Shown here: in pieces, positions 352 through 13,550 of the stretch | How positions within the stretch are numbered: position 1 is the first letter of the stretch | Layout of the letters: every line of letters starts with the position of its first letter | Notes under the pieces: generated by a model | Told to the model about the DNA's origin: nothing | Databases searched by the model: none | The model's input: only the letters and a program-made list of their open reading frames with translations | From: an uncultured Eubacteriales bacterium | GTDB taxonomy: Bacteria; Bacillota; Clostridia; Christensenellales; Borkfalkiaceae | Assembly (NCBI GenBank): GCA_902766475.1 | Contig: CACXDQ010000033.1 | Location: 1 to 26,022, forward strand | Length of the DNA stretch: 26,022 bases | Direction of reading: 5' to 3' | Program-made: the position numbers and the translations under genes

Positions 352-1722
352 ATGAACGTTAAAAAGAGCGTTATATTGAAGGTTTTTTCGGTGATAGCCG
401 CCGCACTCATTCTGTTTATGTGGTTTACGGCGACGCCGAAAACGGAAGCGTTCGCCGCCGATACGTATTATAAGACGTACAGAAAGTGGAAGGCGACGAA
501 GGCGGAAGATTACGTCGTGAATTACAACGACGTTGCCGAGGAGATAGGCAAGCTTTTAGACGGCGGGCTTGAAATTTACGAGAACGCTACCGAGAAAGAA
601 GATTATGCCGAAGCTTACGATTGTTTTTCAAAGGCATACGGAAGCTGGTATGAAACTTCGGGTTTCGAGAAAAAGACCTTGGGGCTTATATCGAGTTCGA
701 GAGTTACCGTCGTTGAATTGCAGTTCGCCAACGTAAAGAACGTGGCGAGCGCAGAGAGCAAGGACAACGTTTTTGAGCTTAAAGGCGAGATAGAAACGTT
801 GAAAACGTATCTCAAAGAGGACGGCGAAAAATTGAGCCCCAAAGACGGCGGCGGCTCGCTCGGTTGGGCGACGTTCGTGGGCTGTTTCACGATAATGCTG
901 AGAGAGGGCTTAGAGGCAATACTGATCATTGCGGCGATGGTTGCTTACCTCATTAAATCGGGAAATAAGTCAAAGGCGAAAGCCATCTATATCGGCGCAG
1001 GTGCGGCGATAGCGGCGAGCGTTTTAACGGCGTTCATTATAGGTTTCGTCCTTAAAAGCGTCGAGGGAATAGCTTATGCGCAAGAGATTATAGAGGGCGT
1101 TACGGCACTGATAGCCGTCGCCGTACTCATTTACGTTTCAAACTGGATGATATCCAAAGCCGAGGGCGAGGCGTGGAACAAATACCTCACGGGCAAGGTT
1201 TCCTCGTCCGTTTCGAACGGAAAGACGATAGCGCTCGGGTTTACGGCGTTTCTCGCCGTGTACAGAGAGGGTGCGGAAGTAATTCTCTTCTATCAGCCGT
1301 TCGTGTCCTCGTCGGAGAGCTTATTCCCCGTAATAGGCGGGCTTTTGGCAGGTCTGTTGGTCGTTGCGGCGGTATTCGTACTCATCAGAGTATTCGGTAT
1401 AAAGCTTCCGCTTAAACCTTTCTTTATGATAACGAGCGGGTTTATGGCGTTGATGTCGATAGCCTTCCTCGGCTCGGGCATAAAGGAGCTTATCGAAGGG
1501 CAAGTTATCACGGCGGGCACTATAAAGGGGCTTGGCTGGATGGAAAACGACGTGTTCGCATTCTTCGGTATATATCCCGTCCGGGCGACGCTCATTCCTC
1601 AGCTTGTACTGCTGGTTATCACCGTCGTTACGTTTATACTTCATATAAGGCACAATAAAAAACTGAGGCTAAAAGCAGAACAAGCCGAACAGGCTGAAAA
1701 TGCCGAACACATTACAAGGTGA
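352..1722 (+). CDS. FTR1-family iron permease with N-terminal extracytoplasmic domain
   Basis: Two REXXE motifs (LREGLE, YREGAE), multiple TM helices, and an N-terminal signal/anchor plus soluble domain. Confidence 0.92.
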   Translation: MNVKKSVILKVFSVIAAALILFMWFTATPKTEAFAADTYYKTYRKWKATKAEDYVVNYNDVAEEIGKLLDGGLEIYENATEKEDYAEAYDCFSKAYGSWYETSGFEKKTLGLISSSRVTVVELQFANVKNVASAESKDNVFELKGEIETLKTYLKEDGEKLSPKDGGGSLGWATFVGCFTIMLREGLEAILIIAAMVAYLIKSGNKSKAKAIYIGAGAAIAASVLTAFIIGFVLKSVEGIAYAQEIIEGVTALIAVAVLIYVSNWMISKAEGEAWNKYLTGKVSSSVSNGKTIALGFTAFLAVYREGAEVILFYQPFVSSSESLFPVIGGLLAGLLVVAAVFVLIRVFGIKLPLKPFFMITSGFMALMSIAFLGSGIKELIEGQVITAGTIKGLGWMENDVFAFFGIYPVRATLIPQLVLLVITVVTFILHIRHNKKLRLKAEQAEQAENAEHITR

Positions 1723-1812
1723 ATAAACTTGTCGAAGCTAAAGGCGAAATTAACGCCCACCGTAAAAAGACAAGATAAATTCTTATAAAAAAATAAAAAG
1801 GAGTCATGTAAC

Positions 1813-2412
1813 ATGAAAAGCAAATTTTTGAAATTACTTGCAAGCTTTATGCTTATTTCCGTCTTTGCATTTGCAATGGTAGCGTGCGACGACGCAGCTA
1901 CAAGCGAAAAGAAAGCTGACGAAGAGCCGGGTGAAGAAGAGGATCTCGGTTTCTCCGAAGTCGAGATATTCGCCGGTGAAAAGTGGGCTGAGGGCTACCT
2001 CGCCATGAACGGCGTTTACTTCCAGGCCGTAACGATGAACGGCGGAACGAGCAAAGAGGACGCTGACTGCCACCTCGAACTCGACGTTTCGGCTATGAAG
2101 GGCAACAAATTCGGCTTCGGCGAAGGCGACTGGGTACCCTATCTTACCGTAAACTATGAAGTTACCAAAGACGGCGAAACAATTTCTTCGGGAACGTTCA
2201 TGCCGATGGCTGCTTCCGACGGTCCTCACTACGGCGCAAACATAAAGATGGCAGGCAACGGCGATTACACCGTTAAGTTTACCGTTTCCTATCCCGGAAC
2301 GGATACTTACCTCATCCACACCGATGAAACCGGCCCCGGAGCGGTTTATCCCACCGCTTCCTACACCTTTGAAAAGACTTGGAACTACATTTTCGGATCT
2401 TGGGAAGAATAA
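1813..2412 (+). CDS. P19/Tp34-type iron (Cu/Fe)-binding lipoprotein
   Basis: Lipobox-like MVAC. Motifs VYFQAVTM, HLELD, MPMAASDGPHYGANIKM and HTDETG carry the His/Met metal ligands typical of P19. Confidence 0.9.
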   Translation: MKSKFLKLLASFMLISVFAFAMVACDDAATSEKKADEEPGEEEDLGFSEVEIFAGEKWAEGYLAMNGVYFQAVTMNGGTSKEDADCHLELDVSAMKGNKFGFGEGDWVPYLTVNYEVTKDGETISSGTFMPMAASDGPHYGANIKMAGNGDYTVKFTVSYPGTDTYLIHTDETGPGAVYPTASYTFEKTWNYIFGSWEE

Positions 2413-2467
2413 TTCGATAATTTGAAAATGCGTATTTGTTGGCTTTACGGGACAATATGATTTTCAT

Positions 2468-2503
2468 TTGCAAAACCGACGGGATAGCCCGTCGGTTTTG
2501 CAA
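2468..2503. terminator. Perfect 16-bp hairpin after the P19 gene (terminator or mRNA stabiliser)
   Basis: TTGCAAAACCGACGGG-atag-CCCGTCGGTTTTGCAA, with no clear U-tract. Confidence 0.6.
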
Positions 2504-2628
2504 GTGTTATGGAAAAAGTATTTTTATTAAAAAAATATACTTATACGTTGTCTTATTCCGCTTTAAAATACTATATATGAAATAATAAAAGCTTAAAAAC
2601 GGCTTTTAATACAATAAAGGAAAATCAA

Positions 2629-4197
2629 ATGCTCACATATCTAATAAGCGTTACGGACAGATTGCTCATTCTATCGATACTTACTGGCGTGGCTATCTCG
2701 TTTGCGGGTGCGTTTTATCTTGAAAGGGGAAAGCTTATCGTCAAAATAGGTCTTGTGGCGGGGCTTTTAGCCGCAATTGTCCGTGCGATAATAACTAACA
2801 GCGTAAGAATAAAGGCGTCGTGGACGTACAGTTCCGTCTATTACGGAATAGTTATCGGTCTGTTTATCGTCGCCGCAATTCTCGCAATACTTTCGGCGTT
2901 GCCACTCATAAAAAAGAGGGCAAAGCTCAAAACTGCGTTCGATATAGCTATCCCGTCGGTCATTGCGGCGGTATTGCTTCTTCTCGCATTCATCTTTTTG
3001 CCGACGGTCTACGCCTATCCCTTCAAATTCGACGCCGGCGAATCGGTCTTATCTACCGACTTTTTATTCCGCTTGGCGGGCTGGGCGCTCGGCATAATCG
3101 TCTGCGTGTGCGCAGGCGTCGCTTCGTATAAACTTTCGGAGCAGGCGGCGGCAAAGGGCTTGAAAGGAATGGTTGCGGTTATATTTACGGGCGTTTCCGT
3201 AATAGAGCTTATATACGTCCTCGCAAGGCAGATGACGCTTTTGGCGCCGAGGAGAATCGTTAAAAGTCAGTTCTTATTCAACTTTGCTTCTGGTAGCGGT
3301 AATCACGAATATCTCTATACATATTTTGCGCTCGGTCTGCTCGCCGTTTTTGCGATAATTCTCATCGTAAAGGGAGTTACGCAGAACGAGCCGTATAAAA
3401 ACCCCGCCGAAAGGAGAAAGATAAGGGCTTCATGGCGAAACGCATACAGACAGGTTGCCGTACTCACGGTTTGCGCCGTCGTCGGCGTGCTTTGTCTGAC
3501 GTGGTTTGTCGCTCTCAATACGACCGTCATCGCCGAAGTTCCCGTCGAGGAATGCGAAGTTATAAGCGCAGTTTTCGGCGGCGACAGATTTATGTCTTTC
3601 GAGGTTTCTTCCGAGGAGGATATTTCTTCGGCTACAATGGTTACCGTCAATGGTAAAAACTGGAAGGGCGTTACCACGAAAAGCGGCGAAAACAAATATA
3701 TTTTAAACACTTTCGTCGGAAATACCGAGCTTGACGTTTACGATATGGTCTGGTATAGCGGAAGCGCCGAAATGTTTTCCGCATCGTATAAAAAAGCGGC
3801 GGAAGAGGGCGAAACTTCCGTTAAACTTATAAAGACTTACAGCGAGAAAGAAGATTGTCTGTACGTTCCGATAGATATTGTGAGCGACGGGCACCTTCAC
3901 CGCTTCGGCTACACCACCGAAAGGGGCTTTAAAACGAGGTTTATAGTTATCAGAAAACCCAATTCGAGCCTTTACGGAGTGGGGCTTGACGCTTGCGATA
4001 TTTGCGGCGAAGCGGGATACTATGAGAGAAACGATCAGATAGTTTGTAAAAAATGCGACGTCGTTATGAACGTCAACACGATAGGCTTTAAAGGCGGCTG
4101 CAACCCGATAGTTATCGACTATACCGTCGATTACGAAAACGGTTACGTCATTGTTCCGACGGCGGCGCTAATACTAAACGAAGAAGAATTCAAGTGA
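2629..4197 (+). CDS. Polytopic membrane protein with C-terminal DUF2318-type Cys-rich domain
   Basis: About 8 TM segments. The C-terminus has DGHLHRF, DACDICG, CKKC and GGCNPI, and the gene sits in its usual position in P19 clusters. Confidence 0.85.
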   Translation: MLTYLISVTDRLLILSILTGVAISFAGAFYLERGKLIVKIGLVAGLLAAIVRAIITNSVRIKASWTYSSVYYGIVIGLFIVAAILAILSALPLIKKRAKLKTAFDIAIPSVIAAVLLLLAFIFLPTVYAYPFKFDAGESVLSTDFLFRLAGWALGIIVCVCAGVASYKLSEQAAAKGLKGMVAVIFTGVSVIELIYVLARQMTLLAPRRIVKSQFLFNFASGSGNHEYLYTYFALGLLAVFAIILIVKGVTQNEPYKNPAERRKIRASWRNAYRQVAVLTVCAVVGVLCLTWFVALNTTVIAEVPVEECEVISAVFGGDRFMSFEVSSEEDISSATMVTVNGKNWKGVTTKSGENKYILNTFVGNTELDVYDMVWYSGSAEMFSASYKKAAEEGETSVKLIKTYSEKEDCLYVPIDIVSDGHLHRFGYTTERGFKTRFIVIRKPNSSLYGVGLDACDICGEAGYYERNDQIVCKKCDVVMNVNTIGFKGGCNPIVIDYTVDYENGYVIVPTAALILNEEEFK

Positions 4198-4207
4198 GGT
4201 GGCGGAA

Positions 4208-5518
4208 ATGTTTTTTTTCAGAATGATCAAAGGCGCATACATCCGCCAATGGAAAAAGATGCTTATAATTGCCGTTACGATAGCGCTCGGCGCTTCGATT
4301 GCGACGGCGATGTTAAACGTAATGCTCGACGTGGGCGACAAGATAAATCAGGAACTTAAAGCTTACGGCGCAAACATAACCGTCGTGTCAAAATCGGCTT
4401 CCGTCTTAAACAACCTCTACGAGATAGAGGACGACGGCAGTGTCGAGGTCGACGAGATGATAAAGGAAAACGACGTCGGCAAGTTAAAGACGATATTCTG
4501 GGCGTTCAACATAACCGACTTTGCACCCACGGTCGAAACGAGCGTTACCGTCGGCGGAGAAAAGCACAAGGTCGTCGGGACGTGGTTCAATCACACGTTA
4601 AAGCTCGTAACGGGCGAAACAGTGATAACGGGCGTTACCAATCTCCGCTCGTGGTGGGAAATAAAGAGCGGCAGATGGATAGACGAGCAAGCTTCGGAAA
4701 ACCTCGACGTCGCAATGATCGGAAAATCTTTTGCGGAAAAGCAAAATCTCAAAGTCGGAGATAAAATAGACGTTTCGGGTAGAGTTGTAGACGGCGAAAC
4801 GAAAACGGTAAGCTTAAAGGTCGTGGGTATATTCGAGGCGGGCGACGAGTCCGACGACGGGATATATGCGCCGCTTGAAAAAGTTCAATACCTTTCCGGC
4901 ACGGAAAATTACGTTCAGAAAATAGAGGTCAGCGCACTTACAACGCCCGACAACGAACTCGCTTTGAAGGCGGCGAAAGACGTAAATTCGCTGTCCATTG
5001 CGGAATACGAACTTTGGTATTGTACGGCTTACGTCAGCTCCATTTGTTACCAGATACAAGAGGCTATCCCGTATACGGTGGCGTCCGCTTTCCGTCAGAT
5101 AGCCGAATCTGAGGGCGATATACTCGACAAAACGCAGCTTTTGATGACGCTTATCACGATAATGAGTATGATAGGCGCAGCCCTCGGTATTTCCAACCTC
5201 GTAACTTCGAGCGTTATGGAAAGGAGCGGCGAGATAGGGCTTATGAAGGCTGTCGGGGCTAAAAATTCACAGATAATAATTTTGATTTTGACGGAGATAT
5301 TCATCACGGCGATAATAGGTGCGGTCGGCGGCTATTTCATGGGCTTCGGCTTTGCGCAGATAATAGGACACACGGTATTCGGCTCTTCTATAGAGATGAA
5401 CGGAATGGTTGCGTTTATCGTTGCGGTGATAATACTCGCCGTCACGCTCGTCGGAAGTTTCCCGGCGATAAGGCTAATGCTGAGGCTTCGCCCGTCCGAA
5501 GTTTTGCACGGCAGATAA
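4208..5518 (+). CDS. ABC transporter permease, MacB/FtsX-like (P19-cluster type)
   Basis: N-terminal TM, large extracytoplasmic domain, ERxxEIGLMKAVGA motif and 3 C-terminal TMs. Start placed at ATG 4208 (SD GAGGT 4196-4200); the track starts at GTG 4199. Confidence 0.88.
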   Translation: MFFFRMIKGAYIRQWKKMLIIAVTIALGASIATAMLNVMLDVGDKINQELKAYGANITVVSKSASVLNNLYEIEDDGSVEVDEMIKENDVGKLKTIFWAFNITDFAPTVETSVTVGGEKHKVVGTWFNHTLKLVTGETVITGVTNLRSWWEIKSGRWIDEQASENLDVAMIGKSFAEKQNLKVGDKIDVSGRVVDGETKTVSLKVVGIFEAGDESDDGIYAPLEKVQYLSGTENYVQKIEVSALTTPDNELALKAAKDVNSLSIAEYELWYCTAYVSSICYQIQEAIPYTVASAFRQIAESEGDILDKTQLLMTLITIMSMIGAALGISNLVTSSVMERSGEIGLMKAVGAKNSQIIILILTEIFITAIIGAVGGYFMGFGFAQIIGHTVFGSSIEMNGMVAFIVAVIILAVTLVGSFPAIRLMLRLRPSEVLHGR

Positions 5519-5531
5519 GAGGTTGATCGTC

Positions 5532-6689
5532 ATGAACAATAAACGCACGAAAATGTTTCTTAAAATGATAACGTCGTCTTTGATAAGAAGGCGTTCGAGA
5601 ATGATCATCGCACTTCTTGCGATAGTTGTCGGTGCGACGATACTTTCGGGGCTTGTAACCATTTATTACGACGTTCCGAGGCAGATGGGCGCACAGTTTC
5701 GTAATTACGGCGCAAACATGATATTCACGGCGTCGGGCGAAGAGCCGCTCACGCAGGAAAACGTAGAAAAGGGAATTTCGTATATTCCCAAAAACGAACT
5801 TGTCGGCTACACGCCGTACAGATATGAAACGGTGAGAATAAACGAACAGCCCGTATTGGTCGCCGGAACGGATATTAAGGGCACGGAAGCCACAAGCCCG
5901 TACTGGTACATAAACGGCAACAGACCGACGGCAAACGGTCAGGTACTCGTCGGTAAAAACGTCGCAAATCTATTGGGCGTAAAGGTCGGCTCTACGGTGG
6001 AGATACACTATTACGACAACGAAGCCGAGAAGAGCGACGACGATATAGATCTCGGCACGACGATGTTCGTTACGGGCATACTCGAAACGGGAAGCTCCGA
6101 AGAAGATTACCTCTATATGTCGCTCGCCGATCTTGCGGAAATTACCGAAAAAGTCGGCAGCTACAACGTCGTCGAGATAAGCGTTTCGACTTCGGGAGCA
6201 AATCTCGAAAAGTATATCGAGCGCATAGATTCAAACGTAGAGGGCGTAAAGGCAAGGCTTATAAAGAGGGTCACGTCGTCCGAAGGCGCTGTGCTTACCA
6301 AACTTCAATCTCTCGTATTTATCGTTACGGCGGTAATTTTAGTTCTTACGATGATATGCGTTGCGACGACGATGACGGCTGTCATTGCGGAGAGAAGAAA
6401 GGAGATAGGGCTCAGAAAGGCGCTCGGCGCTTCAAATTCGAGCATCGTGGGCGAATTTATGGGCGAGGGCTTGCTTCTCGGCGGTATAGGCGGAATACTA
6501 GGCTCGGTACTTGGCTTTGTGTTTGCGGAGATAGTCAGCGTAAACGTATTTTCAAGCTCGATAACGTTCAGACCGCTGATTCTCGTGATAAGCGTAGTCG
6601 TTTCCGTCATCGTTACGGGTGCGGCGTGCCTGATTCCTATCAAGAGCGCAACGGAGATAGATCCGGCACTCATATTAAAGGGCGAATAA
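5532..6689 (+). CDS. ABC transporter permease, MacB/FtsX-like
   Basis: ERRKEIGLRKALGA motif and MacB topology. Start placed at ATG 5532 (SD AAGAGG); the track starts at TTG 5523. Confidence 0.88.
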   Translation: MNNKRTKMFLKMITSSLIRRRSRMIIALLAIVVGATILSGLVTIYYDVPRQMGAQFRNYGANMIFTASGEEPLTQENVEKGISYIPKNELVGYTPYRYETVRINEQPVLVAGTDIKGTEATSPYWYINGNRPTANGQVLVGKNVANLLGVKVGSTVEIHYYDNEAEKSDDDIDLGTTMFVTGILETGSSEEDYLYMSLADLAEITEKVGSYNVVEISVSTSGANLEKYIERIDSNVEGVKARLIKRVTSSEGAVLTKLQSLVFIVTAVILVLTMICVATTMTAVIAERRKEIGLRKALGASNSSIVGEFMGEGLLLGGIGGILGSVLGFVFAEIVSVNVFSSSITFRPLILVISVVVSVIVTGAACLIPIKSATEIDPALILKGE

Positions 6690-6702
6690 GGAGATAAATA
6701 AA

Positions 6703-7377
6703 ATGAGTTTACTTGAAATAAGAAACGTATCTAAGATATACGGCGAATTAAAGGCACTCGACAATATTAATTTGAAGGTCGAAGATGGCGAATGGCTCGC
6801 CATAATGGGTCCGTCGGGCTCGGGTAAAAGCACGATGATGAACATTATCGGCTGTATGGATAAGCCGTCTATGGGCGAAGTGCTTTTGGACGGAAAGGAC
6901 ATTTCCAAAGAGAGCGAGAAAAATCTCACGTCGATAAGAAGGGATAAGATAGGTCTTATCTTCCAGCAATTCCACCTCGTAAGCTATATGAGCGCAGTCG
7001 AAAACGTAATGCTCTCGCAGTATTATCACAGTATGCCCGACGAGAAAGAGGCGCTCGAAGCGCTCGAAAGGGTAGGGCTTAAAGAGAGGGCGAAACACCT
7101 TCCCAGCCAGCTTTCGGGCGGCGAACAGCAGAGGGTTTGCGTGGCGAGGGCGCTTATAAACCACCCCGAAATAATTCTTGCCGACGAGCCGACGGGAAAC
7201 CTTGACGAGGCGAACGAAAATATCGTAATAGATATCTTCCGCCAACTTCACAAAGAGGGCACGACGCTCATCGTCGTAACGCACGATCCCGAAGTGGGCG
7301 AGGTTGCGGAGAGAATGATAAGGCTCGAACACGGCAGAATAATAAGCGACGTTAAAAACGAAAATTTCAGAGGCTAA
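6703..7377 (+). CDS. ABC transporter ATP-binding protein (LolD/MacB-like)
   Basis: Walker A GPSGSGKS, signature LSGGEQQ, Walker B ILADEPTG. Confidence 0.95.
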
Positions 7378-7378
7378 C

Positions 7379-7822
7379 ATGAAGAGGATATTTGTTTTTA
7401 TTTTTGCAATAGTTCTCTCGCTTTTGGCACTTGTATCATGCGGAGGGGGAGAAGAGTATAACGACGGCGTTTACGAGGGCAAAAGCTCGGTATATTCGGG
7501 CGACGAGGACGACGGCGGCGCAGGTTACGGCGTGGTAACGATAACTATAAAGGACAACCTTATCACCGCTTGCACGTTCAACACGTTCGAGCCGGACGGA
7601 ACGCAGAAAGACGAAAATTACGGCAAGCAGAACGGTGAGATAGCCAATCGTGATTACTACAACAGAGCGCAAAGAGCTTTGAGGGCGAACGCCACTTACG
7701 AAAAGGCGATAGTCGCCTACGGCACTCTCGACAAGGTCGACGCAGTTTCGGGCGCAACGATTTCATTCGGACAATTTAAAGAAGCCGTCGAAAATGCCTT
7801 GCAAAAAGCAATCAAAAAGTAG
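7379..7822 (+). CDS. FMN-binding (flavinylated) lipoprotein
   Basis: Lipobox LVSC and flavinylation motif VDAVSGAT (7739-7759) in an FMN_bind-like context. Confidence 0.88.
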   Translation: MKRIFVFIFAIVLSLLALVSCGGGEEYNDGVYEGKSSVYSGDEDDGGAGYGVVTITIKDNLITACTFNTFEPDGTQKDENYGKQNGEIANRDYYNRAQRALRANATYEKAIVAYGTLDKVDAVSGATISFGQFKEAVENALQKAIKK

Positions 7823-7828
7823 TATAAT
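7799..7828 (+). promoter_or_regulatory. Possible internal promoter giving a leaderless mRNA for the gene at 7835
   Basis: TTGCAA (7799-7804), 18 nt, TATAAT (7823-7828). ATG lies 6 nt downstream with no good SD. Confidence 0.45.
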
Positions 7829-7834
7829 GGTAAT

Positions 7835-8329
7835 ATGAAGAATATTATCGCACATTTCTTAATAATATTTGTTTCGCTGCTCGTCATTTTAGGCGTGCCG
7901 ACCGTGCTGTATAAGGACTTTGTGTTCGGCGGCTCCGGCATTGACGCCCTATCCGGTGCGACGATAGAACTGCCCGACGCCCCGTCGGGCAATTATGTCA
8001 TACAGATGAACGTGAAAGACAAGTATTTTACTTCCGCTAAGGAATGGGATAACTTTTTCAACGAGAGAGATTACGACGTGCTTATGGAGGACGTGAATTG
8101 CCTTGTGGCGACAGGCGACGAAAGCGCATATAAGCTTGCGGAAAGATATATGGCAAGGCTTGCGGTAAACCAGATGAAAATAAGGCGTGAAAACGTTATG
8201 TTAACCGTTTCAAAGGCTGAAAATCGACTTATAGACATACTTATTATGTCCGAAGAGTATGCAGAGGCATATAAATTACAGCTTGAAACGGAGGGCGTAA
8301 AAACCATAAAGGTGGAGGGCAAGGCATGA
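7835..8329 (+). CDS. Uncharacterised membrane-anchored protein with flavinylation motif
   Basis: N-terminal hydrophobic helix followed by IDALSGAT (7943-7963). The stop overlaps the next start (ATGA). Confidence 0.7.
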   Translation: MKNIIAHFLIIFVSLLVILGVPTVLYKDFVFGGSGIDALSGATIELPDAPSGNYVIQMNVKDKYFTSAKEWDNFFNERDYDVLMEDVNCLVATGDESAYKLAERYMARLAVNQMKIRRENVMLTVSKAENRLIDILIMSEEYAEAYKLQLETEGVKTIKVEGKA

Positions 8330-8859
8330 TAAGAAAGATAAACGCAATACTTACGTCGCTTATTTTATTGGGCGTAATAATCCACGGCGTGTTTGCCTCG
8401 TTCGGGCTTTTCGGAGCTTCGGCAAACAGTATGAAACACCTTGCGAGGGTAATTTTCGTCCTTGTGGCTTTACATACTGCGATCGGGATATGGACGACTG
8501 TCGAAACTCTGATAGCTTTGAAGAGAGCCGGCGTTCACTATTTTAAAGGCAACCTGATGTTTTGGGCGAGAAGGATAAGCGGAATAGCAATAATGATACT
8601 TCTCGTCTTTCACCTCGTCATTTTCGACGTGGGCGAAGGAAGACTGAGCGTGTTCGACGGCGTGGCGCTTACTACGCAGATACTTCTCGTCGTATCTATC
8701 GTTTTACACGTCGTGATAAACGCCAAACCTATGCTCATATCCTTCGGTATAGGTCGATTAAAGGCACGTGTTGCGGATATTCTGTTTATTTTGTCGGTGC
8801 TTTTGGTCGTGTTTATAGCGGCATTTATAGTATATTATATAAGGTGGCACATCGCCTGA
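8326..8859 (+). CDS. SdhC/FrdC-like five-helix cytochrome b membrane anchor
   Basis: Five TM helices with His20, His50, His96 and His128 in helices 1-4. RRISGIAIMILLVFH resembles Bacillus-type cytochrome b558, and the gene directly precedes the flavoprotein and Fe-S genes. Confidence 0.7.
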   Translation: MIRKINAILTSLILLGVIIHGVFASFGLFGASANSMKHLARVIFVLVALHTAIGIWTTVETLIALKRAGVHYFKGNLMFWARRISGIAIMILLVFHLVIFDVGEGRLSVFDGVALTTQILLVVSIVLHVVINAKPMLISFGIGRLKARVADILFILSVLLVVFIAAFIVYYIRWHIA

Positions 8860-8871
8860 CGGGAGGAATTT

Positions 8872-10443
8872 ATGATAAACGTTATAGGCGCAGGTTTAAG
8901 CGGCATTTCGGCGGCGATAACCATAGCTAAATGCGGTAAAAAATGCAATCTCTTTTCCGTTCAACCGTCGGAGAGGGCGCAGTCCGTCCTTGCGGAAGGG
9001 GGGATAAACGCCGCACTCGACAATATGGGCGAGGGCGATACGGTAGAGGAACATTTCCTCGACACTATGAAAGGCGGAGTGTTTTTAGAGGACGAACAGA
9101 CTATAAAGGACTTTACAGCCGCCGCACCCGATATTGTAATGAAGTTGAAGGCGCTCGGCGTGCCGTTTCACTTAAACGGCGACAAGATAGCGCAGAGAAA
9201 TTTCGGCGGACAGAAGAAAAAGCGCACGGCGTTTTCAAAGAGCAGTACGGGCAAAGTTATTATGACCGCCCTTATCGACGAGGCGAGGAAATACGAAGAT
9301 AAAGGGTTTATAGCGAGGTTTCCTCATCATGAAGTCATAGATCTTTCAATATCGGGCGGCGCTTTTTGCGGCGTAACGGTAAGGGATATATACACGGGCA
9401 GGACGGCTGAATTTTTCGGCGCAACAATTCTTTGCGTCGGCGGTATGAACGGCATTTTCCCCGAAGTTACAACGGGTACGACGCAGAATAACGGCAACGT
9501 TCAGTCGATCGCCTTTTCAAAGGGCGTCGAGTTTTCCGATCTCGAATTTATTCAGTATCACCCGACGACGATAGCCGTTGCTGACAAGAGAATGCTTGTT
9601 TCCGAGGCGGCGAGGGGCGAGGGCGGCAGACTGTTTACCGTTAAAAACGGCAAGCCGTGGTATTTTATGGAAGAAAAATATCCCGTTTTAAAAAACCTTA
9701 TGCCCCGTGACGTCGTGTCGAGAGAATGTTATCTCGCAATTCACGACGGGCAAACGGACGGCAAGGTATATCTCGATTTAACGGGGCTTCCCGAAGAAGT
9801 CAAGAGGGATAAACTTTCCGATCTCTTCGAGGAAATAACCGCCTATAAGTCGATTGATCCGTCTGTAACGCCCGTTCCCGTCGAGCCGGGGATACACTAT
9901 TTTATGGGCGGGATAAGCGTCGATAAAGGGCATAGGACGAACGTAAAAGGTCTGTATGCCGCAGGCGAGTGCGCCTCGATATATCACGGTGCGAACAGGC
10001 TCGGCGGAAATTCCATGCTCGGCGCAATTTACGGCGGAACGGTTGCGGCGAAAACGGCGGTAGACGAAAATTACGAGTGCGCCGCCACGGATAACGGCTC
10101 GCATGAACTGCCGTTCGGATATGCGGAGAGAGCGGACGGCTCGCCGTCGTTCAATAAAAAACTAAGGGATATTCTCTTTGACGGGCTTGGAATAATAAGG
10201 GACGAAAAGGGGCTTATCTCTTCGCTTGAAAAGGTGGAAAAACTTATTTCCGAAACAAAGAACGAAACCGAGATGGCGAGGGCGACGCTCGGCAAGGCGA
10301 TGATACTCTCCGCAATAGAGAGGAAGGAGAGCCGTGGGGCGCATTACCGTGCGGACTTCCCCGAGCAAAGTGAAGAATACAAGGCTAAGTCGACGGCGGT
10401 ATTTTCGGGCGGCGAAATAGTCATAAAATTCAAAAAGGCGTGA
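8872..10443 (+). CDS. sdhA: Succinate dehydrogenase/fumarate reductase-like flavoprotein (atypical, lacks the covalent-FAD His)
   Basis: GAGLSG FAD motif, AEGGINA, RNFGG, QYHPT, SEAARGEGG, RDVVSR, HYFMGG, HGANRLGGNS and ESRGAHYRADFP. Confidence 0.85.
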   Translation: MINVIGAGLSGISAAITIAKCGKKCNLFSVQPSERAQSVLAEGGINAALDNMGEGDTVEEHFLDTMKGGVFLEDEQTIKDFTAAAPDIVMKLKALGVPFHLNGDKIAQRNFGGQKKKRTAFSKSSTGKVIMTALIDEARKYEDKGFIARFPHHEVIDLSISGGAFCGVTVRDIYTGRTAEFFGATILCVGGMNGIFPEVTTGTTQNNGNVQSIAFSKGVEFSDLEFIQYHPTTIAVADKRMLVSEAARGEGGRLFTVKNGKPWYFMEEKYPVLKNLMPRDVVSRECYLAIHDGQTDGKVYLDLTGLPEEVKRDKLSDLFEEITAYKSIDPSVTPVPVEPGIHYFMGGISVDKGHRTNVKGLYAAGECASIYHGANRLGGNSMLGAIYGGTVAAKTAVDENYECAATDNGSHELPFGYAERADGSPSFNKKLRDILFDGLGIIRDEKGLISSLEKVEKLISETKNETEMARATLGKAMILSAIERKESRGAHYRADFPEQSEEYKAKSTAVFSGGEIVIKFKKA

Positions 10444-10457
10444 GCGGAGGTCGGTAA

Positions 10458-11162
10458 ATGGCTATCTTTATAGAAATTTTAAGGACGAAAAACAGCGATA
10501 AACAATACTTTGAGACCTTTTTATACGAGCCTTTCGGCGATGGCGACACGATAGCTACGGCGCTTAAAAAGCTCAACGAGAGAGAGGAGCTTAAAGACGT
10601 TGACGGAAAAGCCGCCGAGAAGATCGAATGGGAATGCAGCTGCCTTCAAAAGAAGTGCGGCTCGTGCGCAATGGTCATAAACGGCAGACCGAGGCTTGCT
10701 TGCGACGCTAAAATAAGCGAGTTTAAAGGAAAAGTCAGAGTAGAGCCGCTCAAAAAATTTCCCGTTGTGTGCGATCTTACGGTCGATAGGTCGATACTTT
10801 TTGCAAATCTCAAAGAGATGAAGAGCTGGGTGCCCGACGAGAAAGAGGCGATTATAAACGGAAAGGAAATTCAATACGAGTCTTCAAGATGCCTTCAATG
10901 CGGTTGCTGTCTTGAAATTTGCCCCAACTTCTATTCGGGCGGCAAGTTCTTCGGCATGGCGGCGGGTGCGCTCACTTCAAGGCTTATATCGGAGCTTCCC
11001 AAAGGAGAGAGGGACGAGATAGCAAAGGCTTATAAAAAGCATTTTTACGCAGGTTGCGGCAAGTCGCTCGCTTGCAAGGACGTCTGTCCCGCCGGAATCG
11101 ACACCGAAAAACTTCTCGTAAACTCAAACGCCGTGGCAATATGGAAAAGAAAATCAAAATAA
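10458..11162 (+). CDS. sdhB: Succinate dehydrogenase/fumarate reductase-like iron-sulfur subunit
   Basis: [2Fe-2S] motif CLQKKCGSC...LAC, [4Fe-4S] motif CLQCGCCLEICP and [3Fe-4S] motif CGKSLACKDVCP. Confidence 0.88.
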   Translation: MAIFIEILRTKNSDKQYFETFLYEPFGDGDTIATALKKLNEREELKDVDGKAAEKIEWECSCLQKKCGSCAMVINGRPRLACDAKISEFKGKVRVEPLKKFPVVCDLTVDRSILFANLKEMKSWVPDEKEAIINGKEIQYESSRCLQCGCCLEICPNFYSGGKFFGMAAGALTSRLISELPKGERDEIAKAYKKHFYAGCGKSLACKDVCPAGIDTEKLLVNSNAVAIWKRKSK

Positions 11163-11238: not shown

Positions 11239-11664
11239 ATGTTGGTAAATAAGAGAAACGTAAAATTCGGCATAACGGACGTCGTCGTTTTCGTTATTTG
11301 CGCCGTGTTTACGGTCGGCATTTTTACTTGGTTTGCGCCGTGTGCGCCGATGGCGGAAGGAATGTATATGGTCTGTCATTGGGCGGGCAACGCCATCGCT
11401 TCGCTCGCAATACTTTTAACCGTCATCTCCGCCGTGCATATCTTATTGTCGGACGGGAAAATGAAGCTCGGCGTGGATATTTGCATTTTGTCGATTGCGA
11501 TAACGGCGGCGATAATACCGGGCAACGTAATTTCGCTATGCGCACATTCTTCGGCGCATTGCATGGAGCTTACAAAGCCGTTTACGATAGTTTTTTCCGT
11601 TTTGACGGCGCTTGCTGCGGCGTTTGATTTTTGTTACTACTTTATTAGAGAAAGAAAGAAATGA
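11239..11664 (+). CDS. DUF4418-like membrane protein with Cys/Met/His motifs
   Basis: About 4 TM segments with CAPMAEGMYMVCHW and LCAHSSAHCM. SD GAGGTG, and the stop overlaps the permease start. Confidence 0.75.
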   Translation: MLVNKRNVKFGITDVVVFVICAVFTVGIFTWFAPCAPMAEGMYMVCHWAGNAIASLAILLTVISAVHILLSDGKMKLGVDICILSIAITAAIIPGNVISLCAHSSAHCMELTKPFTIVFSVLTALAAAFDFCYYFIRERKK

Positions 11665-12866
11665 ATTTTTTTGCGGAGCTTTCGTTAAAAAACTTAAAGA
11701 GAAAACCGCTGAGGACTTTTGCGCTTTCCGCACTTGTCGCCCTCTTGTCTTTTGTCCTTTTCGGCGGCACTATTTTGGTAACGAGCCTTAAAAACGGGCT
11801 TGACAGTTACAGCGCAAGGCTTGGTGCGGACGTCGTGGTAGTTCCATATGCCGCTCGGTCGGAAGGACAGTTCGAGGACGTGCTTTTACAAGGTATCCCC
11901 GGCAATTTTTATATGAGTTCGTCTAAGATCGACAAGATAGCTAATGTCGAGGGCGTAGATAAGCTTTCTCCTCAATTTTTCCTCGCCTCGACGAGCGCAA
12001 GCTGTTGTTCGGCATCGGTACAGATAATAGGTTTCGATCCCGATACCGACTTTTCCGTTCTGCCGTGGGTAAACAGGAAGTACGGCGGAAGTATAGGGGA
12101 CGGGGATATAGTCGTCGGCTCGGAAATATCCGTAACGACGAGCGGAAAACTTAAATTTTACAACGTCGAATGTAACGTCGTCGCCACGCTTGAAAGGACG
12201 GGGACGGGGCTTGATACCGCCGTTTACGCCAATATGAATACCATTAAGCAGATGGCGAAAAACGCAAAGGAACTCGGCTTTACGTTTTTGGACGGGGTGA
12301 ACGTCGATAAGTCCGTTTCGGCGGTAATGATAAAGGTTAAAAGCGGTTACGACGCCGAGAGCGTTGCGGCGCAGATAAACATGGCGGTAACGGGCATACG
12401 CTCGGGCAGTTCGACGAGCTACGTCAGCGGCGTTGCCGGAGGGCTCGATAACGTTTCGGGCATAATAGGCGCTCTATCTGTAATGATATGGGTGCTTTCG
12501 GTGGTTATCCTCGGCGTGTCGCTCTTTGCGATATGCAACGAACGCGGTAAAGAATTTGCCGTGCTTCGTGCGATGGGTGCGTCTAAAAAGTCGCTCTATA
12601 AGTTGATTATCGTTGAAATTTCAATATTGTCGGCGGTCGGAGCGTCGGTCGGCGTTATACTTTCCGGGGCGTTTATATTGCCGTTCGGCGCAATTATAAG
12701 GAGAAGTTTGCAGATGCCATATTTAGTTCCCGAATGGTGGCAGTTAGCGCTCTTTGCGGTAGCGGCAGTTGTCATTTCGGTGCTGACGGGCGTTATAGCC
12801 TCATTGTTTTCTGTCAAAAAATTAAGCAAAAACGACGCAGGGCTTATGCTCAGGGAGGACGCTTGA
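11661..12866 (+). CDS. ABC transporter permease, MacB/FtsX-like, with ASCCS motif
   Basis: MacB topology, ERGKEFAVLRAMGA, and vicinal Cys in the extracytoplasmic domain. Confidence 0.88.
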   Translation: MNFFAELSLKNLKRKPLRTFALSALVALLSFVLFGGTILVTSLKNGLDSYSARLGADVVVVPYAARSEGQFEDVLLQGIPGNFYMSSSKIDKIANVEGVDKLSPQFFLASTSASCCSASVQIIGFDPDTDFSVLPWVNRKYGGSIGDGDIVVGSEISVTTSGKLKFYNVECNVVATLERTGTGLDTAVYANMNTIKQMAKNAKELGFTFLDGVNVDKSVSAVMIKVKSGYDAESVAAQINMAVTGIRSGSSTSYVSGVAGGLDNVSGIIGALSVMIWVLSVVILGVSLFAICNERGKEFAVLRAMGASKKSLYKLIIVEISILSAVGASVGVILSGAFILPFGAIIRRSLQMPYLVPEWWQLALFAVAAVVISVLTGVIASLFSVKKLSKNDAGLMLREDA

Positions 12867-13550
12867 ATGGTTGTAAAAGCTGAAAAGATAAGCAGAACTT
12901 TTTTGAGAAATAAGGCGGGCACTAACTTTTTCTATGCCGTTCAAAGTACCGATTTTCAAGCGGAGAGCGGCGAGTTTATAGAGATCGTCGGAAAGTCGGG
13001 CAGCGGAAAGAGTACGTTTTTAAATATGCTCGCAGGGCTTTTGACGCCGACTGAGGGCAAGGTATATATAGGAAATACCGACCTTTACCTTTCCGAGGAC
13101 GGAGAGAGGTCGCAATTCAGAAATGAAAATATAGGCGTTATTCCGCAAGGGCAGACGGGGCTTTTAAGCCTTACCGTCCTTGAAAACGTATTGCTTCCGT
13201 CGAAGATATACGGCAAATGCGACGGCGAAAAGATCGTAAGAGCCGAAGAGCTTTTAAAAGCCGTCGGGCTGTACGATTTAAAGGACGTCTACCCGAACGA
13301 GCTTTCGGGCGGCGAGATGAGGAGAATGGCGATTGCGAGGGCGCTTATAATGCAGCCTTCCGTCATTTTAGCCGACGAGCCGACGGGCGATCTCGACGAG
13401 GAAAATACGGCGCTTGTAATGAGTTTGCTAAAAAATGCGGCGAAGGGCGGCGCAACCGTCATAATGGTAACGCACGATAAAGACGCATTGTCGTATGCCG
13501 ATAAAGTTTACTCGATGAGTGGCGGCGTGTTGTCCGAAAAGACGGCGTAA
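12867..13550 (+). CDS. ABC transporter ATP-binding protein
   Basis: GKSGSGKS, LSGGEMRR, LADEPTG. Confidence 0.95.
   Translation: MVVKAEKISRTFLRNKAGTNFFYAVQSTDFQAESGEFIEIVGKSGSGKSTFLNMLAGLLTPTEGKVYIGNTDLYLSEDGERSQFRNENIGVIPQGQTGLLSLTVLENVLLPSKIYGKCDGEKIVRAEELLKAVGLYDLKDVYPNELSGGEMRRMAIARALIMQPSVILADEPTGDLDEENTALVMSLLKNAAKGGATVIMVTHDKDALSYADKVYSMSGGVLSEKTA

Follow-up and report, generated by a model that had tools for sequence, protein, structure and literature searches.

It is accepted that electrons can travel outside the bacterial cytosol by way of proteins flavinylated by ApbE. The known substrates of this enzyme comprise FMN_bind proteins (NqrC, RnfG, PplA), NqrB/RnfD, DUF2271, DUF3570, flavinylated Flavodoxin_4 and FMN reductase (PMC8238504, PMC11334425), and the seven-residue motif D-x-x-[S/T]-G-A-[S/T] suffices for ApbE, also when it is located at protein termini or in loops (PMC12052999). 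In trypanosomatids, the protein FRDg is flavinylated at the N-terminal motif D(g/s)x(s/t)(s/g)AS, which is not part of an FMN_bind domain (PMC8065229), and in Listeria, EetB represents the substrate-binding subunit of the flavin adenine dinucleotide (FAD) exporter that supplies ApbE (PMC9973259). Surveys leave "orphan" ApbE genomes, and they count 260 clusters that combine P19/FTR1 iron uptake with an FMN-binding gene; P19 clusters that include FMN_bind are explicitly listed as without a transmembrane electron-transfer system (PMC8238504). Here we analyse a stretch of 26,022 nucleotides (the window; contig CACXDQ010000033.1 of assembly GCA_902766475.1, positions 1 to 26,022) from an uncultured Eubacteriales bacterium, in which P19/FTR1 iron-uptake genes and an FMN_bind gene are followed by the gene of a 164-amino-acid (aa) membrane protein and by a putative cytochrome b of the succinate dehydrogenase (Sdh)/fumarate reductase (Frd) type. 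We propose that the 164-aa protein is probably a flavinylated, extracytosolic redox subunit which represents a new class of ApbE substrate and serves as an electron conduit.

Results

The features that are central to this proposal are the following:

7379 to 7822, plus strand: FMN_bind lipoprotein, 147 aa (PF04205, E 1.3e-8; lipobox LVSC; DAVSGAT at 7739-7759)
7835 to 8329, plus strand: gene of the 164-aa type II membrane protein, candidate flavinylated subunit (open reading frame, family search, AlphaFold2 model)
7838 to 7909, plus strand: N-terminal membrane helix of that protein, residues 2-25, predicted N-in/C-out (model and charge bias)
7943 to 7963, plus strand: ApbE-type motif D37-A-L-S-G-A-T43, with Thr43 (codon 7961-7963) as predicted acceptor of flavin mononucleotide (FMN) (conservation, DUF6921 alignment)
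7991 to 8326, plus strand: five-strand alpha/beta domain, residues 53-164, DUF6921-like and predicted to be extracytosolic (Foldseek, profile, hhalign)
8326 to 8859, plus strand: five-helix four-His membrane protein, 177 aa, putative dihaem cytochrome b anchor and predicted docking partner

The initial annotation had pointed out one flavinylation motif in each of two consecutive genes, and re-reading of the sequence bears this out. The codons gac gca gtt tcg ggc gca acg at 7739-7759 encode DAVSGAT near the C-terminus of the lipoprotein, while gac gcc cta tcc ggt gcg acg at 7943-7963 encode DALSGAT at residues 37-43 of the 164-aa protein, starting 12 residues past its single predicted membrane helix (modelled at residues 2-25). 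The reported coupling to the cytochrome b gene is likewise correct, as the TGA stop of the 164-aa frame (8327-8329) overlaps the ATG (8326-8328) of the next one. A scan of all open frames of at least 80 aa in the entire assembly (1,535,734 bases or 1.54 Mb in 285 contigs, 86% complete; 990,367 residues scanned) with the pattern D..[ST]GA[ST] returned two strict matches, namely those in the two adjacent genes. Since residue shuffling predicts 2.6 strict matches per genome, this genome-wide count is unremarkable; within this particular 164-aa protein, about 4e-4 chance matches are expected. It is the conservation across homologues, and not the genome-wide count, that constitutes the real evidence for the motif.

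Only two close homologues were returned by a word-indexed protein search, and the family of the 164-aa protein emerged from an exhaustive HMMER search, which yielded 121 cluster representatives at E<=1e-3 (87 at E<=1e-10), mostly of 155-175 aa. The protein has no match in Pfam, even at E<=10, or in NCBIfam, and PF04205 in particular gives none at E<=10. Its AlphaFold2 model (59 homologues; mean predicted local distance difference test score (pLDDT) 91) consists of helix 2-25, an unstructured linker at residues 26-52 (mean pLDDT of 10-residue blocks 57-81) and a five-strand alpha/beta domain at residues 53-161. The top Foldseek match of this model is the Protein Data Bank entry 3NOH (E 1.7e-5; template modelling (TM) score 0.72 by target), to whose sequence the family profile also aligns (E 2.2e-4), followed among the structural matches by individual lobes of type II periplasmic binding proteins. 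An FMN_bind or flavodoxin fold was considered as well and ruled out by the Pfam scans and fold searches.

The entry 3NOH corresponds to RUMGNA_00914 of Ruminococcus gnavus, a structural-genomics target titled "putative peptide binding protein", which is a mislabel; in Pfam the protein belongs to DUF6921 (PF21914). Structures of DUF6921 clusters from the atlas resemble that of the 164-aa protein with TM scores of 0.55-0.59, and hhalign relates the window family to 26 DUF6921 proteins with a probability of 97.6% (E 4.4e-12, 118 columns) at an identity of about 19%. The PF21914 model (gathering score 26 bits) itself gives no match at E<=10 for the window protein and four other members. Judged by these profile comparisons, the 164-aa protein is a remote sister of DUF6921 that lies beyond the reach of the Pfam model. 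As such, the earlier statement that the protein matches no recognisable family stands for Pfam and NCBIfam but misses a remote homologue of solved structure. Literature searches on the motif in its older spelling and on DUF6921, PF21914 and RUMGNA_00914/3NOH found no relevant paper, and none gave a published function for DUF6921, and both the PF21914 model and the 3NOH crystal construct omit the motif Asp. Members of the window family occur in 4 of 399 sampled Clostridia species genomes and in rumen and human gut metagenomes, R. gnavus being one of the carriers.

Within the linker, positions 26-36 and 44-47 are variable, and residues 37-43 form an island of conservation. Among 105 sequences that cover all seven columns, position 1 is Asp in 93, position 4 is Ser/Thr in 96, position 6 is Ala in 97, and the acceptor position 7 is Ser/Thr in 96 (91%). 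The relaxed form D..[ST][SG]A[ST] is present in 73 (70%) and the strict Gly form D..[ST]GA[ST] in 16 (15%), with position 5 being Ser in 65 (about 62%), Gly in 21, Ala in 6 and occasionally His, Lys or Gln; the linker consensus of the close family reads D-A-V-[ST]-[S>G]-A-[ST]. In DUF6921, the form D[AV][VI][ST]GAT directly past the helix is found in 70 of 74 full-length proteins, with D30, G34, A35 and T36 invariant, and hhalign puts DALSGAT in register with DAVTGAT of DUF6921. A conserved SGAT, which the initial annotation had regarded as decisive, is hence not found across the window family in its strict form, but the acceptor residue and the relaxed pattern are kept and the sister family is canonical. 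We conclude from the alignments that what appears to be an ApbE-type acceptor site is conserved across two families sharing about 19% identity. The FRDg motif, which admits Ser in place of Gly and has a Ser acceptor, is flavinylated, and this suggests that such sites may be competent.

In 61 full-length members, the net charge is +1.7 on the N-terminal side of the helix and -0.9 in the 15 residues after it, the N-terminal side being the more positive one in 56. Because the positive-inside rule gives an N-in orientation, motif and domain are predicted to lie outside the cell, for which the likeness to lobes of periplasmic binding proteins also counts; the placement assumed initially is therefore supported by this charge bias and by docking on the outer loops of the cytochrome (see below). 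The longer family members end in acidic low-complexity C-terminal tails, and tails of this kind are frequent in surface proteins of Gram-positive bacteria. A fusion with cytochrome b was sought among these longer members, and acidic low-complexity tails were all that was found. Where the anchor helix meets the cytoplasm, 53 of 61 sequences retain His7 (7853-7855); DUF6921 instead has an invariant His right behind the helix (LLHSPPS).

The open reading frame 8326-8859 has 118 homologues of about 179 aa, and in an alignment of 44 of them H20, H50, H96 and H128 are invariant. Counts of Lys and Arg place the N-terminus and loops 2 and 4 inside, and loops 1 and 3 and the C-terminus outside. With SdhC of 6LUM the profile has a weak match (E 3.4e-4); a few homologues have a precomputed PF01127 match, and the window protein itself is without a Pfam match. 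From this pattern, the four His residues would be expected to coordinate two bis-His haems. Two homologues (P0146, P0158) are publicly named "pilus assembly protein PilX", which looks like an annotation error.

A complex of the 164-aa protein with the four-His protein was modelled from our own family alignments for both proteins, with two haems as unscored ligands. The interaction prediction score from aligned errors (ipSAE) was 0.67 (runs 0.66, 0.72 and 0.67), compared with 0.00 for the best control; in calibration, 58 of 80 solved complexes attained the mark applied to this score, as did 2 of 110 mismatched pairs. At least 77% of contacts were common to the runs, and the pLDDT of the partner was at least 76. 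Confident contacts connect domain residues 59, 88, 90 and 117-134 with residues 30-32, 105-109 and 173-177 of the cytochrome b, which are exactly its three outer segments poor in Lys and Arg. They include the invariant L107 and the nearly invariant R173 and W174 of the cytochrome b, and the contact residues S126 and K127 align with the invariant S133 and R134 of DUF6921. The association suggested by the initial annotation thus gains support from a prediction that passes its controls and places the domain against the cytochrome's outer loops, and such an arrangement could bring the flavin site near the outer haem. Outside this predicted interface lie the nearly invariant Trp71, Cys89 (8099-8101; kept in 53 of 61 sequences) and the invariant Asp95 (8117-8119), and the latter two may mark a ligand or flavin pocket.

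The assembly encodes a single ApbE, a lipoprotein (297 bits; lipobox LCGC), which on contig C227 (L001:306-2189, minus strand) is followed in an operon-like row by a gene with a NusG_II domain and by an EetB-family (PF07456) gene. This row resembles the FAD-export and flavinylation genes of Listeria. The FMN_bind lipoprotein at 7379-7822 is the only FMN_bind protein and the only recognised ApbE substrate found in the assembly, and no RnfD/NqrB was found at its completeness of 86%. ApbE is also present in two genomes with DUF6921 modules (G368 and G026).

The module of the window continues downstream of the cytochrome b gene and is preceded by the iron-uptake genes:

8872 to 10443, plus strand: SdhA/FrdA-like flavoprotein, 523 aa, with Gln at the position of the covalent-FAD His
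10458 to 11162, plus strand: SdhB/FrdB-like iron-sulfur subunit
352 to 7377, plus strand: iron-uptake genes, upstream and co-oriented (FTR1 permease, P19, FtrD-like membrane protein, two FtsX/MacB-type permeases, ABC ATPase)
11239 to 13550: DUF4418 membrane protein, FtsX permease and ABC ATPase, downstream of the FrdB-like gene

The flavoprotein scores below every NCBIfam cut-off (395 bits vs 855). It keeps the HPT, RGEGG, HYxMGG and GANRLG motifs, with those of the dicarboxylate site intact, and in alignments to solved SdhA chains Gln36 (codon 8977-8979) replaces the His that binds FAD covalently. The same Gln is found in every related module examined (L002, L010, L012, L015, L017, G368, G026 and G062).

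In all 11 locus types read, a four-His cytochrome b gene lies directly downstream of the motif protein, often with overlapping stop and start codons. A FrdA-like gene is next or nearby in all nine types with longer records, the two short metagenome types ending too early. Seven types were read far enough to show a FrdB-like gene, and six of them have one at this place, the exception being L035/L036. The full P19/FTR1 operon recurs in L012-L014, where the gene order of the window is kept with a family member of about 37% identity, and it is found in part in L010. In L017/L018 and L037/L038 there is no adjacent transporter gene. Since the module also occurs without a nearby FMN_bind or P19 gene, the constant link is the one to cytochrome b and not the one to the FMN_bind lipoprotein. 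The two-flavin relay with this lipoprotein that was initially envisaged is hence not general, although it persists as an option in the P19 context.

A second metal context, distinct from P19/FTR1, is formed by ArsR-type regulators and heavy-metal P-type ATPases around the module in L035/L036, G026, G062 and G368. The DUF6921 modules there directly follow a P-type ATPase with two HMA domains (L035:2331-7214, L036, L040 of G026, L004 of G368 and L041 of G062), often with an ArsR/HTH_5 regulator upstream. In the R. gnavus-like gut contigs (L035:5982-7214 and L036:4880-6112) the FrdA-like gene encodes 410 aa and no FrdB-like gene follows, and the module may be truncated or decaying in these contigs. 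In L010 (6378-9716), DUF4418, FtsX and ABC genes lie between the cytochrome b gene and FrdAB, and immediately before the FrdA-like gene stands a dehydrogenase gene of the Ldh/Mdh family, which hints at a link to C4-dicarboxylate metabolism. As the DUF4418/FtsX/ABC trio of the window recurs in L010 and L012-L014, it belongs to a conserved supercluster. In L017 (12545-13204) and L018 (8018-8677), where the module stands without P19 and FMN_bind, a gene for a DsbD_TM-family membrane protein, a second kind of transmembrane reductant conduit, follows the FrdB-like gene.

Discussion

The conserved motif, the predicted topology, the linkage to cytochrome b, the modelled interface and a genome that encodes the flavinylation machinery together suggest the following mechanism. 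The 164-aa protein would be anchored in the membrane by one N-in helix, and the lipoprotein ApbE, supplied with FAD by the EetB-like exporter, would attach FMN by a phosphoester bond to Thr43 in the linker motif. The DUF6921-like domain would dock on the outer loops and the C-terminus of the four-His cytochrome b, whose gene comes next and is translationally coupled, so that the tethered flavin could link the outer haem to extracytosolic partners. In the operon of the window, this part would fall to the FMN_bind lipoprotein and to the iron-uptake proteins (P19, FTR1 and FtrD-like), and on the cytoplasmic side the cytochrome would be connected to the FrdB-like iron-sulfur subunit and, through it, to the FrdA-like flavoprotein.

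Several observations weigh against such a role. Flavinylation is a prediction for the window family and DUF6921 alike. Gly at position 5 is in the minority in the window family (21/105), while the FMN_bind partner proteins keep the strict SGAT, and exchange of Gly for Ala halves, without abolishing, the flavinylation of a model substrate (PMC12052999). None of the motif residues belongs to the confident contacts of the complex model, and the use of our own alignments and of haem ligands departs from the calibration of the complex tool. In L015/L016 the trio of cytochrome b and FrdAB occurs with no gene for the motif protein, a search of genome G062 (73% complete) found no ApbE, and no ALAD gene for haem synthesis was found in the 86%-complete assembly of the window, for which reason haem would have to be acquired from outside.

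One could imagine that the 164-aa protein represents a structural or accessory subunit on the outer face of the cytochrome b without a covalent flavin, at least in the majority of members with Ser in place of Gly, and that the linker peptide serves in cytochrome contact or in the binding of a metal or a non-covalent ligand. The frequent Ser (65/105) and the occasional His, Lys and Gln at position 5, next to a strict SGAT in the adjacent FMN_bind proteins, would fit such a role, and D95, C89 and W71, all outside the interface, could form a ligand site unrelated to flavin. However, the pattern of the linker fits the seven-residue ApbE motif at each position and is canonical in DUF6921, sites of the SSAS type are flavinylated in trypanosomatid FRDg (PMC8065229), and ApbE and the FAD exporter would then serve just one substrate in this genome. 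We thus regard a subunit without flavin as unlikely.

It appears still less probable that the protein is a solute- or metal-binding protein, equivalent to one half of a periplasmic binding protein, that serves the neighbouring transporters (FtsX/ABC here, the heavy-metal P-type ATPase in DUF6921 loci) and lies next to cytochrome b merely by virtue of a shared regulon. The fold, with its matches to single lobes of type II periplasmic binding proteins, the title "putative peptide binding protein" of 3NOH and the metal contexts (P19/FTR1 here, ArsR-type regulators and HMA-domain ATPases elsewhere) are all compatible with this idea. It is at odds, however, with cytochrome b being the sole constant neighbour, also in the loci without an adjacent transporter gene (L017/L018 and L037/L038), with the overlapping stop and start codons, and with a complex model that passes its controls, and it leaves the conserved ApbE motif without a reason. 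That the motif is a chance match, as the roughly 2.6 strict matches per shuffled genome might suggest, or a small-residue site of the signal-peptidase type, given that S-x-A-S/T resembles the A-x-A cleavage site, is hardly credible, since it is conserved across two families at about 19% identity, lies 12-18 residues past the hydrophobic helix, a distance greater than is usual for signal-peptidase I sites, has a conserved Asp at -6 that would be unaccounted for, and belongs to a gene that adjoins the only FMN_bind gene of the genome; a signal-peptidase site was rejected on the helix distance and the conserved Asp.

If the 164-aa protein is the flavinylated subunit that we propose, the question arises in which direction electrons would move and which carrier would be involved. 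Sdh and Frd enzymes without a covalent FAD link have a lower flavin potential, which disfavours succinate oxidation but not fumarate reduction. Because the Gln in place of the covalent-FAD His favours fumarate reduction, we lean slightly towards electrons flowing inwards, from an oxidation outside the cytosol to fumarate as the sink, and this would fit the ferroxidase logic of FTR1-type permeases. On the other hand, the flavin potentials and the membrane potential argue for an outward flow instead. With respect to the carrier, no UbiA-family (MenA-type) prenyltransferase was found in the genome of the window (86% complete), in G368 (100%) or in G062 (73%), whereas G026 encodes one. This mixed evidence is suggestive of a cytochrome whose partner need not be a quinone. 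If the absences, including that of ALAD, are real, an organism that encodes a four-His cytochrome b would itself be making no menaquinone and no haem.

One could further speculate that the four genes constitute an electron conduit through the membrane of gut and rumen Clostridia that is self-contained and needs no quinone, although we consider this wider proposal to be rather doubtful. Such a conduit may connect the fumarate/succinate chemistry of the cytoplasm with redox reactions of metals on the outer side. Since the module adjoins P19/FTR1 in certain genomes and a heavy-metal P-type ATPase in others, it could represent an anaerobic counterpart of multicopper oxidases. By analogy with the Fet3-type ferroxidase that acts with Ftr1 and the CueO-type cuprous oxidase that acts with CopA, fumarate could replace oxygen as the sink, and run in reverse, the conduit could act as a metal reductase.

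Should the proposed role of the 164-aa protein be correct, it would define a new substrate class of ApbE with a new fold and a tether-type site, and it would provide a function for DUF6921 and 3NOH. A cytochrome b of the succinate dehydrogenase type would join the membrane systems that serve flavinylated proteins, and a testable answer would be at hand to how electrons are supplied or removed in the FTR1-type iron uptake of strict anaerobes, which are often quinone-less, and possibly also in copper or heavy-metal handling. The carriers include R. gnavus, a common human gut species.

Compared to its closest relative, the window protein shares with DUF6921 the N-terminal membrane helix, the linker with D-x-x-[ST]-[GS]-A-[ST] and the five-strand alpha/beta domain, and the loci of both have a downstream four-His cytochrome b and a FrdA-like protein with Gln at the covalent-FAD position. 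The two differ in the motif, which is TGAT in DUF6921 and mostly SSA[ST] in the window family, and in their surroundings, as the DUF6921 loci seen lie beside the ArsR-type regulators and heavy-metal P-type ATPases instead of P19/FTR1. On the side of the membrane complex, the appropriate comparison is the single-anchor Sdh/Frd enzymes of the Bacillus subtilis SdhC and Wolinella succinogenes FrdC type. The window module resembles these in the gene order C-A-B, the five helices, the four invariant membrane His residues, the N-in orientation and the homology of its SdhA and SdhB subunits. It differs from them by a shorter anchor (177 aa, no Pfam match), the lack of the covalent-FAD His and an extra subunit that is predicted to be extracytosolic, and since three of the four host genomes checked yielded no UbiA-family prenyltransferase, quinone may not be the partner.

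With the known ApbE substrates, the 164-aa protein has in common a location outside the cytosol (predicted here), the same seven-residue motif, the co-occurrence of ApbE and a FAD exporter, and a transmembrane electron-transfer partner. Unlike them, it has a fold that is similar to half of a periplasmic binding protein, shows no sequence match to them and is flavinylated by prediction only. Its motif is located on a flexible N-terminal tether ahead of the domain, whereas in known substrates it lies inside the domain, and in FMN_bind it is found at the C-terminal end of a beta-sheet domain. The nearest parallel in this respect is FRDg, which also has an N-terminal motif outside any FMN_bind domain, tolerates Ser at the Gly position and as acceptor, and, similar to what is proposed for the module of the window, has a flavin that feeds a flavoenzyme of the fumarate reductase type; FRDg is, however, soluble and eukaryotic, a multidomain enzyme to which an ApbE-like domain is fused, without a membrane anchor and without cytochrome b (PMC8065229).

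Lastly, the window shares FTR1, P19, an FtrD-like protein, FtsX/ABC genes and FMN_bind with the described P19/FTR1 clusters, but unlike in those listed in PMC8238504, a candidate electron-transfer system follows directly in the window, in L010 and in L012-L014. The module is hence a candidate for the missing electron source of P19 clusters. Its Sdh-type cytochrome b partner is new in comparison with the ten systems of PMC8238504 and the cytochromes of PMC11334425. Overall, what looks new in relation to the known ApbE-served carriers is the fold, the tether-type acceptor site, the Sdh-type cytochrome b partner and the recurrent metal-handling neighbourhoods.

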